A stretch of DNA of 63,552 nucleotides, filler included, from Reclinomonas americana ATCC 50394 (lineage: Eukaryota), in assembly GCA_048213135.1 (NCBI GenBank). It is 14 parts of 14 records of this genome, joined end to end, with 100 filler letters (N's around TTAATTAATTAA, not from the genome) between each part and the next. Parts side by side here need not be neighbours in the genome. Positions count along the whole stretch, not along the records: positions 31,863 to 40,579 come from AFZH01020913.1; 13 more parts are not named here. One strand, 5' to 3'. The translations under genes and the position numbers were made by a program. Position 1 is the first letter of the stretch; every line of letters begins with the position of its first letter. Positions 31,759 to 41,042 of the stretch are shown one piece after another. The notes under the pieces are model-generated. The model was not told the DNA's origin and made no database searches. It saw only the letters and a program-made list of their open reading frames with translations.

Positions 31759-33766
31759 CTCCNNNNNNNNNNNNNNNNNNNNNNNNNNNNNNNNNNNNNN
31801 NNNNNNTTAATTAATTAANNNNNNNNNNNNNNNNNNNNNNNNNNNNNNNNNNNNNNNNNNNNGGACGCGCTGTCAGTGCTGGGTGAGTTGGGAGGAAGGG
31901 AGTGGCGGGGAAGGCAGAGACTGAGTCCGAGTTAGGCATTCGATAATAGGAGGGATAGTAATGGGGAAGTGGGATGGCGGTGAGGTGGGAGAGAAGTCGG
32001 GCTGGAGGAAAGTGGAGGCTGAGCTGAGAGACAATGAGAGAAAGGTGAACGAAGTATGTGCGGCAGAACAAGAGGTGGTCAGATCGAAGGCACAATCAAC
32101 GTCGGCATAGGCACCGTCTGCTATTTGTATTTGCATCGTGAACGCAGCAAGCGAGACATAGAGCAGAGTGCATGGACGAGACTTGATCAGATAGAGGACT
32201 CAGTTGACGAAGGCACCGCCTTGCATTGTGCCACCACAACGTGTTCAGGGCTCCAATTAGTTTCCTTGATGTGTTTGAGAGTTTGTGACGTGAGCACCGC
32301 GTGGTGCTTGTATTTGCATCGTGCCACCACCTCTTGGTGTAGCGCCTCTCCTGCGATCCATTGATACATTCACTGACTCTGTTTGGTTTCCCCCGCAGCT
32401 CCTCCGTTGCAACCCGTCATGAACACGAACACGACGACGACTCCGGTGCTCGAGTACACGGACGGTTACACACTCAAGTGGCAGTGTCTGCGTCGAGCCG
32501 TGGCCTCGCAGCGCGTGCATGTGTTGCTCACTGCCAACCCGCGCAACTCGACCGCCGTTGTCACTGGCAGTGGCACGACGAGTCCGTCATCTGAAAGTGG
32601 CCTGCCGTCGACTGCGAGTTTCGTGGCTTGGTGCCGCGCTGCATGCTGTCGTGATCTCCGTGAATTAACTCGCCGTGTGCGATTCCGTTGCAGTTGTTGG
32701 CAGCCTCAATCACGTGGTGGTTTCGGGTGCCAGTGCACAGCATTTCTGGATCGTAGCGTTCAACATTACATCGACATGCAGTTGCGTGTCCACGCTGTTT
32801 CTGTCGGTTGGAGGTGGACTTTTCGTCTCATTTTTAATGTGTGAACACAGCGGAGAGCAACAGCACGAGTTCACGCGCTGCTGCCGACGACGTGTTCAAC
32901 AGCATCAGCTTCTCGGCGGCCTCGTCGCTTGCCAGCCAGGACCTCATTTATCAGGTGACATTTGCTGCGCTCTGCTCTCTTCTTCTTTCTCAAACGGACA
33001 CACTCACTTGTTGCTGCTGACTTGGCAGGCGACGGTGATGGATGCCGATCAGCCATCGGTGGTCGCTCGGAGTGCCGAGTTCACACTGCAGAGTTTCGTG
33101 GCATGCGCAGTGCACACGAGTCGTGCAGCGACTGACACAGCTCTCTCACTTTATTTTACCGCAGGTCCGACCTCGACATCGTCAACAGATACCAGCAGCA
33201 GCAGCAGCAGTGGCGGAGGGAGTCGCGGACTCGCCAGTTGGGCGATTGCGCTCAGCGTGGTCCTGCCGTTGCTGTTTCTCCTTTTGCTACTTCTGCTGCT
33301 GTTGTGGTTCCTGCGCAAGCGGCAACTGCAGAAGCGGCTGCGCGACAAGCACGAGCGGCAGTTTGAGAGTGCGCGCGTCAAGTTCGACAGTGTCAGTCCG
33401 GTCAGCGCGAGTGGCGTGGAGCCTTTGTTGCAGGCGGCGGCATCACGGTCGCCATCGTCGCCGCCGGCTTTGTTACTTCCGCTCACACCACCTCCACTTC
33501 CGTCCTCGCCAGTGTCGCCAATGCATGGTCACGTTTCGAGAGGCCTTGTGTTGACGCCGCTCGAGTTGCCGTCCACGCCCACCTCGAGTGCACGTGAACA
33601 GGAGGGTGGCGATACAGATGTACGCAGTCGTCAGCATCTGCGTGCGCCTGCAATCGCCGCCGCTGCGGTGTTTGCGCCACCGTCGCGTGCGCTGCTGACT
33701 TTGGTGAGTTCTGTTGTTCAGCATCGTCAGCTGGGAGGAGAGAATGCTGAGAATGATGGAATGTAG
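16631..33766 (+). CDS. Giant type-I membrane protein: signal peptide, NHL-repeat beta-propellers, FN3-like and Ig/IPT-like Ser/Thr-rich domains, single TM, Pro/Ser-rich tail; crosses six gaps
   Basis: Signal MSRSAIHHLVLLATAVVIIAASCTVAHG; many YVADxxNxxIR...VTTxAG...DGxGxxARFNxPxG repeats (18040-23440); TGLTTNTIYYYRAVA; TM WAIALSVVLPLLFLLLLLLLLLWFL-RKRQ (about 33240-33320). Continuity across gaps and the exact last exon are inferred. Confidence 0.8.
30830..31430. repeat. Purine-rich diverged tandem repeats in a long intron
   Basis: Recurrent GCAGGAGGGACGAGAAGAGAAA and GCATGAGGAGAGTGCAAGGAAAAGAT blocks. Confidence 0.75.
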
Positions 33767-33974
33767 ACTAGATTGGTGTTTGCGGAGATGGATGCTCTAG
33801 AGACTGTAATTTTTTCTTAGCTTCTAGACTTGAAAGTACTTCTGGGTACTGACTGTATCAGTGCCGTCATGGACAATCACCTGCTTTCACCCAGTTGTTC
33901 TTGATTGTCCTGTTAATTCTTGTTTTTTCTTGCACGTGTGAGCAAGCGCACCCTTTTGTCTGTGTCAACTAGCC

Positions 33975-34115
33975 ATGAACCACCATCCGAAAGATCCCCC
34001 ACGTCCGCCGCGTCCGATTGTTGGTCCGCGCCCTATTGTGGGCCGCCCTCACCCACTGCCTTACCCGAAGCCGGGACCCATTGGACGTCCTCAGGGGGGG
34101 CCTGTGCTGTACTAG
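33975..34115 (+). CDS. 46-aa Pro/Arg-rich small ORF MNHHPKDPPRPPRPIVGPRPIVGRPHPLPYPKPGPIGRPQGGPVLY (below the ORF-track cutoff)
   Basis: GCC-ATG context; 16 Pro and 7 Arg/Lys; the tandem PRPIVG copies differ at four third-codon positions, all synonymous. Confidence 0.6.
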   Translation: MNHHPKDPPRPPRPIVGPRPIVGRPHPLPYPKPGPIGRPQGGPVLY

Positions 34116-35619
34116 CCGATGGTCGTTCCTTGTCCACTAGTAGTTCATCGCACAGTGGGACTGTCGGCCTTGCGCAGCGTCGTGTACTTGTTCTTAGTCT
34201 TTGGCTTTCATCCACAGAAACAACAACAACAATTCATTCACCAACAAACAAGCAACAGCTGTCTTGATGACCAAGTTCAACCTGAATCCTTCGCTGCGAC
34301 ATGAAAAAGTCATCCGTCTGTGATCGCGTCTCGCTGCGCGTTGCTACATTAAATGTGACAGCGCTTGCACGCCAGTGGAGTTCGAAAGCGGACAAAAACA
34401 GGAACAGCTTGTTCTGACCTTGGTGTCATGTGCGTGCAGGCGTGCGTGTCTCGTGCACTGCTTTGTACTCGATTGTGTTGTATTGATGCACTTGCCGTCG
34501 CATTCTTCCTCGTGAGAGAGAAGTGCGCACGTTGCTTGATCATCTCAGCGCCCATGCTGAAACATTTTGCGCCACGAAATCCTTTTGAGGCCAACACGCG
34601 TTTGCTTGGCTTTGTCTCCTGAAAGGGAAGATGTCTGTTGGAGAAGATTTATCTATGTGTTGATTATTGTTGGTGTGCCAATGGTCATCGTCGGCAAGGG
34701 ATTTGTGGACATTTGTCGCATTATTGGATGTGGTGAATGAAGTGTTTTTCTTTCTTGACTGATTTTGAAGATCTAGACGCAAGTTTATGGATACCCAAGA
34801 TGCACCAATCTCTATTCTTCTACAGTCTTTTTTATCGCTCGAGCTCTGCAAAGCAACCATTGGTGGTGGTACGGCCGTGGTATCAGCTGAGCTGCAGCTG
34901 CAGCCGGCGGCAGACTTGCAGCGCCTCTATTCAAATTTATACTTTCCACTGTTGCTCAGCGCGACATGTTTTTAGTGTCCCTTGCACTGCTCCGCACTGC
35001 GCAGCACCACCGTGTGCGTACCGAAAAGTGATGGAGACGATCATGTAATTCAGAGAGGCGGACAAAACAAGAAGAGCTGGCTGGCAGCTAGCTGGCTCAC
35101 TATTATCATTTCTATTAAACTCGCAGCGAGTGCGTGCACTGTCTGCGTCCATGTCGGCGGAAGAGACGATGAAGAATAATACGAGAGGAAGCGCTGGTGG
35201 TGAGTGGGTGTTGCAGCATCGAAACAGTACTCGCTGCTTCATGTTGTCGCTCATTCAGACCTCAATCAGCGGCTGCCAGTGCAGCTGTCCTCTCTGACCC
35301 ACCAGTGCTCGCTGTTCCACCGCCTCGAGCTCGCGGTTCACGCGACCGGCATTCACGAGTTGCGAATCGTAGCGCAGCGCAGTGCGTGTCACATGTGTGT
35401 GTGTTGTCTCTCTCACTCTCTCTTTCTCTCTCTCTTTCACTCTTTCCCTCCCTCCTTCTCTTGCCCTCTCTCTCTCTCTCCATGTACATTCTCGCCCTTT
35501 GCTGCAACTCTTTGTCTTTTCAGTGATAGGTGTTTTGCTCTTCGTTCACGCGATGCGCACACGTGCAGAACTCACATGTGTGGTTGACGCAGGGGCTTTC
35601 TGGTGGCGATTCACTCGGC

Positions 35620-41042
<5,423 letters not shown>

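Follow-up and report, generated by a model that had tools for sequence, protein, structure and literature searches.

In the genome of Reclinomonas americana ATCC 50394 (GenBank assembly GCA_048213135.1), a short open reading frame (ORF) rich in proline and arginine lies between the last large exon of an intron-rich gene and the start of a gene for an ABC half-transporter. This raises the question of whether the frame is coding at all and, if so, to which transcription unit it belongs and what its product would do. A preliminary description of the locus had compared the peptide to the proline-rich antimicrobial peptides (PrAMPs) of animals and had tentatively linked it to the transporter. The analysis reported here covers a window of 63,552 nucleotides, filler included, composed of 14 parts of the genome; all positions are counted along this window, and the part that carries the ORF (positions 31,863 to 40,579) comes from record AFZH01020913.1. 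The features of the locus are compiled in Table 1.

The reading that we favor, with a probability of about 0.5, is that the ORF truly codes for protein, is restricted to this lineage and belongs to the transcription unit of the upstream gene, at whose 3' end it would be either a tail exon or a small downstream ORF. Its product would be a disordered and basic tail or microprotein that bears PxxP motifs; translation, the splice route and docking are all inferred. The main alternative is a frame that is open by chance, located in GC-rich, imperfectly duplicated 3' untranslated or intergenic DNA behind the upstream gene. The coding sequence of that gene would then end one codon into an exon that starts at 33973, or at the TAG at 33970-33972 after a hydrophobic segment, and the frame would be open because GC-rich DNA has few stop codons. 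This alternative is a serious one, to which we assign somewhat less than even odds, and the evidence on it is given below together with the corresponding results.

Table 1. Features of the R. americana locus, with positions along the window
Feature	Position	Strand	Properties
Last large exon of the upstream gene	33029-33703	+	Ser/Thr-rich stalk, one transmembrane helix, Pro/Ser-rich tail of about 140 aa
Donor ending the upstream exon, G/GTGAGTTCT	33704-33712	+	8.1 bits, 99.7th percentile of all GT in the window; phase 0
GC-poor stretch	33704-33972	+	39-46% GC, between two GC-rich blocks
Candidate acceptors in the GC-poor stretch	ends at 33820; 33894; 33972	+	33894: 7.0 bits, 98.3rd percentile; 33972: TAG, -2.3 bits
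Polypyrimidine tract	33894-33935	+	frame 1 reads LFLIVLLILVFSCT
Candidate 35-nt intron, GTGAGC...CTAG	33938-33972	+	donor 3.2 bits, acceptor -2.3 bits, no branch-like motif
Pro/Arg-rich ORF	33975-34115	+	ATG at 33975, 46 codons, TAG at 34113-34115; product MNHHPKDPPRPPRPIVGPRPIVGRPHPLPYPKPGPIGRPQGGPVLY
Tandem 18-nt units (two), both encoding PRPIVG	34008-34025, 34026-34043	+	4 differences, all at third codon positions and synonymous
Third, shortened copy, encoding PIGRP	34077-34091	+	3 differences from PI(V)GRP at 34032-34049, all synonymous; gap of exactly one codon
Predicted 5'-UTR intron of the ABC gene	35200-35523	+	donor 7.7 bits (99.6th percentile), acceptor 4.8 bits (96th percentile)
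ABC half-transporter, TMD then NBD	35620-40437	+	traced part: 13 exons, 12 introns, 786 codons without a stop

Composition of the ORF and its repeat units

The composition given in the preliminary description was reproduced in full from the sequence. The 46-residue product contains 16 proline residues (35%) along with 5 arginines, 2 lysines, 1 aspartate and 3 histidines, which corresponds to a net charge (K+R-D-E) of +6, and the PRP motif occurs at residues 9, 12 and 18. It also contains one class I SH3-ligand pattern, [RK]xxPxxP, at residue 6, and two class II patterns, PxxPx[RK], at residues 5 and 8; patterns like these are to be expected wherever Pro and Arg are abundant. A Kyte-Doolittle scan of the ORF found no hydrophobic core of the signal peptide type: the first 20 residues have a mean hydropathy of -1.67, and the highest 9-residue window reaches 0.99. 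The stop-to-stop frame that holds the ORF starts at 33942, and the ATG lies 2 nt 3' of the pyrimidine tract and its TAG. Open frames of this size are commonplace here, with 158 stop-to-stop frames of at least 30 aa in the 7 kb around the ORF, as would be expected if the frame were open by chance.

The argument for coding draws on the internal repeats. The two tandem units were found to differ as originally described, with four synonymous changes and no replacement, and with the shortened copy included, all 7 of the 7 differences are at third positions and synonymous in the frame of the ORF. In a single 18-nt pair, four of four differences would all share a phase with a probability of 0.0049 if the phase is given and 0.015 if any phase is allowed. 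The third copy contributes a probability of 0.022 for the given phase, although this copy was found post hoc, and the joint probability of 7/7 synonymous differences is about 1e-4 for the given phase, uncorrected for searching. These figures can be compared with a window-wide scan for neighboring imperfect copies in tandem, in which the unit measured 12-30 nt and mismatches numbered 3 or more without exceeding 25%. The scan returned 141 pairs, in 5 of which all differences fell in one phase, and four of these five were 12-nt units with 3 mismatches, which is roughly the chance level. Pairs with at least 4 mismatches numbered 31 by hand count, and only one of them, the pair at 34007, was of the one-phase type. 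An estimated 0.27 such pairs are expected by chance among the 31, so the first pair is not significant when the whole window is considered; chance would produce a pair like the first in about one window out of four, a point in favor of a frame open by chance.

Taken together, the two tandem units and the third copy are suggestive of protein-level constraint on the ORF without amounting to proof. The selection on protein that had initially been read from the first pair is therefore only partly borne out: the 7/7 synonymous differences and the gap of a whole codon speak for it and against a chance frame, whereas the first pair alone is not significant and the third copy was recognized after the fact. 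In the overlapping plus-strand frame of 116 aa, the same differences are replacements, and there is one minus-strand frame in which the first two copies are also identical in amino acids.

Base composition and codon usage

The GC content of the locus alternates between 61-66% in the upstream exon, 39-46% at 33700-33950, 60-69% at 33950-34150 and 42-50% beyond. The ORF thus coincides with an island of exon-like GC content, preceded by a GC-poor stretch of about 270 nt, and this coincidence counts against a frame that is open by chance. A codon log-odds model was built from some 7.5 kb of the window that is probably coding. In the frame of the ORF, its values between 33940 and 34170 range from -5 to +2 per 30 codons, as compared to -12 to -28 in the flanks, and locally it is this frame that scores highest, another point against a chance frame. 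The frame of the upstream exon has a positive codon score up to about 33700 and a negative one thereafter, which fits the use of the donor at 33704.

A second test considered synonymous codon choice. The ORF scored 9.5 bits, compared to 11.0 +/- 5.3 bits for coding windows (n = 101) and -8.0 +/- 9.6 bits for stop-free non-coding windows (n = 157), of which 1.9% reach the value of the ORF; the non-coding set consists mostly of GA-rich introns. Furthermore, the +1 frame at the ORF scores 12.4 bits, and since it scores as well as the frame of the ORF, the test is not frame-specific and, on both counts, weak. This failure to separate the two frames speaks for a chance ORF and tells against the favored reading.

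The upstream gene and the routes of splicing

The upstream gene is large and rich in introns, and its product appears to be a surface protein that spans the membrane once, shows weak hints of Ig-like domains and has a cytoplasmic tail rich in Pro and Ser. It had been referred to as an NHL gene, an identity that was not reproduced: there was no Pfam match to NHL in the 10 + 49 + 5 ORFs scanned (overlapping sets), and the only matches, all sub-threshold, were to TIG (E 0.031), Kre9_KNH (E 0.029) and DUF7862 (E 0.0016). Leads from the Atlas, at 0.83-0.89, point toward Kre9/KNH-like Ig domains. The Pro/Ser-rich tail of the protein has a low codon score of 0.07 per codon, so a Pro-rich continuation would be of the same kind as this tail.

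Splice sites were scored with a crude matrix derived from the 13 donors and 12 acceptors of the ABC gene, and donor percentiles refer to all GT in the window. Since the donor at 33704 ranks among the best 0.3% of GT dinucleotides, at least one further exon must follow the upstream exon; the GC-poor stretch from 33704 to 33972 is probably the terminal intron, or introns, of this gene. Within it, the tract at 33894-33935 may belong to an intron as its pyrimidine tract, or it may encode a hydrophobic C-terminus that stops at the TAG at 33970-33972. The acceptor at 33972 scores below all 12 training acceptors and ends in TAG, as do just 1 of the 12 curated acceptors, the other 11 ending in CAG.

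The strongest pairs of sites close the frame of the upstream gene before the ORF, which is a point in favor of a chance frame. Splicing from 33704 to 33972 matches the GC-poor stretch exactly but is out of frame with the ORF and yields one Pro codon followed by TGA. This TGA overlaps the ATG of the ORF (CCATGA, 33973-33978). Splicing from 33704 to 33894, the top-scoring acceptor, adds 25 codons, LFLIVLLILVFSCTCEQAHPFVCVN, and then reaches the TAG at 33970-33972, two bases before the ATG. The sole single-intron route in frame with the ORF runs to 33972 from a second GT at 33708 (GTTCTG), 4 nt 3' of the first. This donor scores 0.0 bits (24th percentile), and a similar word in the ABC gene, GTGAGTTGG (GTGAGTT), is cut at its first GT. 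There are also 49 two-intron routes in frame with the ORF, all of which use weak sites. If one base between 33942 and 33969 were an assembly error, the hydrophobic frame and the ORF would form a single frame.

Removal of the 35-nt candidate intron would join LFLIVLLILVFSCT in frame to the ORF, and the preliminary description had proposed that this intron attaches a hydrophobic segment. The string is present and the junction is indeed in frame, but length, branch motif and acceptor all argue against splicing. The 12 curated introns measure 79, 72, 366, 77, 53, 72, 199, 709, 87, 61, 71 and 614 nt (range, 53-709 nt), and 7 of the 12 have a CTGAY or YTRAY word at -20 to -31, which the candidate lacks; its donor is at the low end of the training range. 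A search of the window for introns that bridge two open, coding-like frames identified 29 candidates, 23 of 55-106 nt and 6 of 25-42 nt, while the same search in reversed sequence returned 9, of which 3 were shorter than 50 nt. Because the six short candidates are at about the level of the reversed control, introns of less than about 50 nt have no support in this window. A histogram of spacings from strong donors to strong acceptors was flat and uninformative. The 35-nt intron is thus unlikely, being too short, devoid of a branch motif and equipped with an acceptor weaker than any in the training set. A leader encoded by the hydrophobic segment would depend on it, and the frame of that segment (33853-33972) contains no ATG, so that such a leader is not supported.

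Homology searches

Searches with the ORF found no relative. There were no Pfam families at E <= 1 and no PDB chains of at least 20 residues at E <= 10; a k-mer protein search among longer proteins gave 8 candidates, none of which had E <= 10, and one among proteins of similar length gave no match. A HMMER search against 1.84 billion representatives returned a single match, a tandem-repeat protein of 1,507 aa, which we consider spurious, given that it consists of 16 weak stretches in repeats. The ESM Atlas gave no usable match, and none of the pattern matches could be confirmed in the metagenome scans, either with a 57-aa frame (597 matches) or with an ABC exon (177 matches), or in prokaryotic genome contigs (532 matches). 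A search for paralogues by tblastn, as had been suggested, was run within the window and found low-complexity Pro tracts only. The lack of a homologue in any search is what would be expected of a frame open by chance and counts against the favored reading. On the other hand, a k-mer search with a transmembrane-domain (TMD) exon of the ABC gene also found no relative, which indicates that this organism is poorly represented, so that missing homologues say little about the ORF itself.

A docking tail or microprotein

According to the favored reading, a PI(V)G-RP unit would have been duplicated locally to give rise to the ORF, which protein-level constraint would then have preserved. Two ways of expression can be envisaged. 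In the first, the segment would be spliced on as the last exon of the upstream protein. In the second, it would be a small downstream ORF with an ATG that shares bases with the stop codon at which the strongest splice would end the upstream frame. Stop/start overlaps of this kind serve reinitiation in some viruses and bacteria; the overlap seen here is possibly a coincidence. Among the points against the favored reading are that the strongest donor is out of frame when joined to 33972 and the sole in-frame single-intron donor scores 0.0 bits, in addition to the points on homologues, the +1 frame and the post hoc repeat statistic raised above. For a eukaryote, a free-standing gene of 46 aa would be out of the ordinary, and so would reinitiation downstream of a long ORF.

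The product would be an unstructured cationic segment of the polyproline type that may serve as a cytosolic docking site for SH3-, WW- or EVH1-like domains and not as a secreted antibiotic. PxxP docking segments in cytoplasmic tails and adaptors are known as class I and class II SH3 ligands. The ORF resembles such tails in that it combines a PxxP core with a flanking basic residue, is basic, Pro-rich and of low complexity, and adjoins a cytoplasmic tail, rich in Pro and Ser, of a protein that crosses the membrane once; it differs in that the strongest splice to this tail is out of frame. The fallback offered in the preliminary description, an SH3/WW-binding peptide or the last exon of the upstream gene, comes near to the reading preferred here and is supported in part. 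Eukaryotic microproteins encoded by small ORFs are another point of comparison. They share with this ORF a length of less than 100 codons, the lack of homologues and the fact of being missed by ordinary gene calling, whereas the ORF differs from them in that it abuts the end of another gene and does not stand alone.

If the ORF is translated, it would be another example of a short, repeat-born, Pro-rich segment that gene finders miss in an intron-dense protist genome. In that case, the presence of a docking tail on a membrane protein could hinge on the choice between two donors 4 nt apart or on a stop/start overlap.

The ABC half-transporter and the antimicrobial reading

The gene model of the ABC half-transporter was built by comparing the sequence with the motifs typical of ABC proteins, and exons were flagged by matches to the Pfam families ABC_membrane (E 5.7e-9) and ABC_tran (E 1.8e-9). 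These matches agree with the earlier observation of a co-oriented ABC half-transporter about 1.5 kb downstream; its ATG is located 1,505 nt after the stop codon of the ORF, on the same strand. The best solved match of one TMD exon was to an MsbA-type lipid flippase (E 7.7e-6). Beyond ABC_membrane and ABC_tran, the Pfam scan of 112 ORFs detected no peptidase or other peptide-export domain. K-mer and metagenome searches with the ABC exon found no related locus at which the linkage of peptide and transporter could be tested. The proposed link was drawn from adjacency, which in a eukaryote is weak evidence of a functional connection, and the ABC gene starts at an ATG of its own, preceded by a predicted 5'-UTR intron. 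Beyond adjacency, the link is not supported.

The PrAMPs are defined in the APD by a proline content above 25%, often combined with arginine (PMC9658076), and the groups named in PMC9658076 and PMC11484942 are those of insects, crustaceans and mammals. Those of the cathelicidin type are described in PMC11484942 as prepropeptides with an N-terminal signal peptide. The APD, in the count considered, lists just 8 protist antimicrobial peptides of any kind.

The ORF resembles animal PrAMPs in its proline content above 25% with arginine (35% Pro, with 5 Arg and 2 Lys against 1 Asp, within the definition of PMC9658076), its cationic character, its PRP-type motifs, its length of a few dozen residues and its expected extended or unstructured state; it differs in lacking a signal peptide or pro-region and, in the searches made here, any sequence similarity, and its host is a protist. 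Examples of PrAMPs are the oncocin- and apidaecin-like peptides of insects and cathelicidins of the Bac5, Bac7 and PR-39 type. The insect peptides, too, are made as secreted precursors with a signal peptide, and TAP-like transporters are known to move cytosolic peptides.

That the ORF encodes a Pro-rich antimicrobial acting on bacterial ribosomes, provided with a spliced-on hydrophobic leader or leaving the cell leaderless through the ABC half-transporter, is very improbable. Its composition (35% Pro, +6, three PRP motifs, 46 aa) fits that of the PrAMPs as defined in PMC9658076, a co-oriented half-transporter follows, and there are signs of protein-level constraint on the frame. However, the ORF has no core resembling a signal peptide, which cathelicidin-type PrAMPs possess according to PMC11484942; the segment that could be spliced on lacks an ATG, and the 35-nt intron that it requires is outside both the curated lengths (53-709 nt) and the 55-106 nt class. 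In addition, similarity to catalogued peptides was absent, with no match in Pfam or PDB and no real one among the 1.84 billion representatives, and the 112 ORFs scanned yielded no peptidase or other peptide-export domain. The ORF was thus not classified as a PrAMP because no core of the signal peptide type, a defining feature, was found, and what remains of the original antimicrobial interpretation is the likeness in composition. We similarly give little credence to the specific version in which a leaderless Pro/Arg peptide of a bacterivorous protist would reach the phagosome or the outside via the half-transporter and inhibit bacterial translation in the manner of apidaecin or oncocin. If the antimicrobial reading were true, it would matter far more than the docking reading, the PrAMP groups named in the cited papers being those of animals; the evidence for it is compositional.

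Further coding contexts, namely a minus-strand exon (RGG-like, GRPTIGRGPTIGRGGRGG), the 116-aa plus-strand frame at 33917-34267 and an upstream coding exon of the ABC gene, are equally remote: the minus-strand frame that preserves the first two repeat copies is open for 27 codons only (33968-34048), with the third copy unconserved in another stop-bounded piece and both neighboring genes on the plus strand; the 116-aa frame, although the longest open frame across the site and in frame with the donor at 33704 via an AAG acceptor ending at 33946, has a codon usage score of -22.9 bits, replacements at all repeat differences and an acceptor of -4.5 bits; and an ABC exon would have to use donors inside the ORF of -2.1 to 4.9 bits and an intron of 1.5 kb, twice the longest curated one, while the ABC coding sequence cannot extend upstream past 35523, since TGA and TAG follow this acceptor.

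Additional features of the window

Several observations concern the gene structure of the ABC half-transporter. Four of its 13 curated donors start with GTT, at 36094, 36490, 37141 and 37566 on the plus strand, with the donor words GTTCGT, GTTTCG and, twice, GTTGCG; three of them follow an exon that ends in A or T, and one follows G. The gene also contains a microexon of 12 nt (LYFN; 37554-37565, plus strand), which is flanked by introns of 72 nt and 199 nt, the latter with the donor GTTGCG, and which is required for an in-frame TMD in the 786-codon model. An apparently in-frame TGA at 36548-36550 (plus strand), which connects two open ABC frames, prompted us to consider a reassignment of this codon. 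It is no sign of a changed genetic code, because it is located inside another intron of 72 nt, at 36490-36561, and the 786-codon model is free of stop codons. The long introns of the gene are full of GA-rich and GT microsatellites, which are found at 38040-38260, 39715-40300 and 40450-40580 (plus strand) and elsewhere. The window also contains 13 pairs of 44-N runs, with 12 bases between the two runs of a pair, as in the filler between its parts.

Finally, an element of 47 nt at 34232-34278 (plus strand) is repeated at 9660-9708 on the minus strand, and the two copies share an exact 20-mer, as compared to 0.01 expected. Both copies end in ...CTTGATGACCA. A long CT-rich tract comes next, at a distance of 45 nt or 1.1 kb, and after it an ATG, which on the plus strand is the start of the ABC gene at 35620. 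The element could be a promoter or 5'-leader motif and possibly indicates where the next transcription unit begins.
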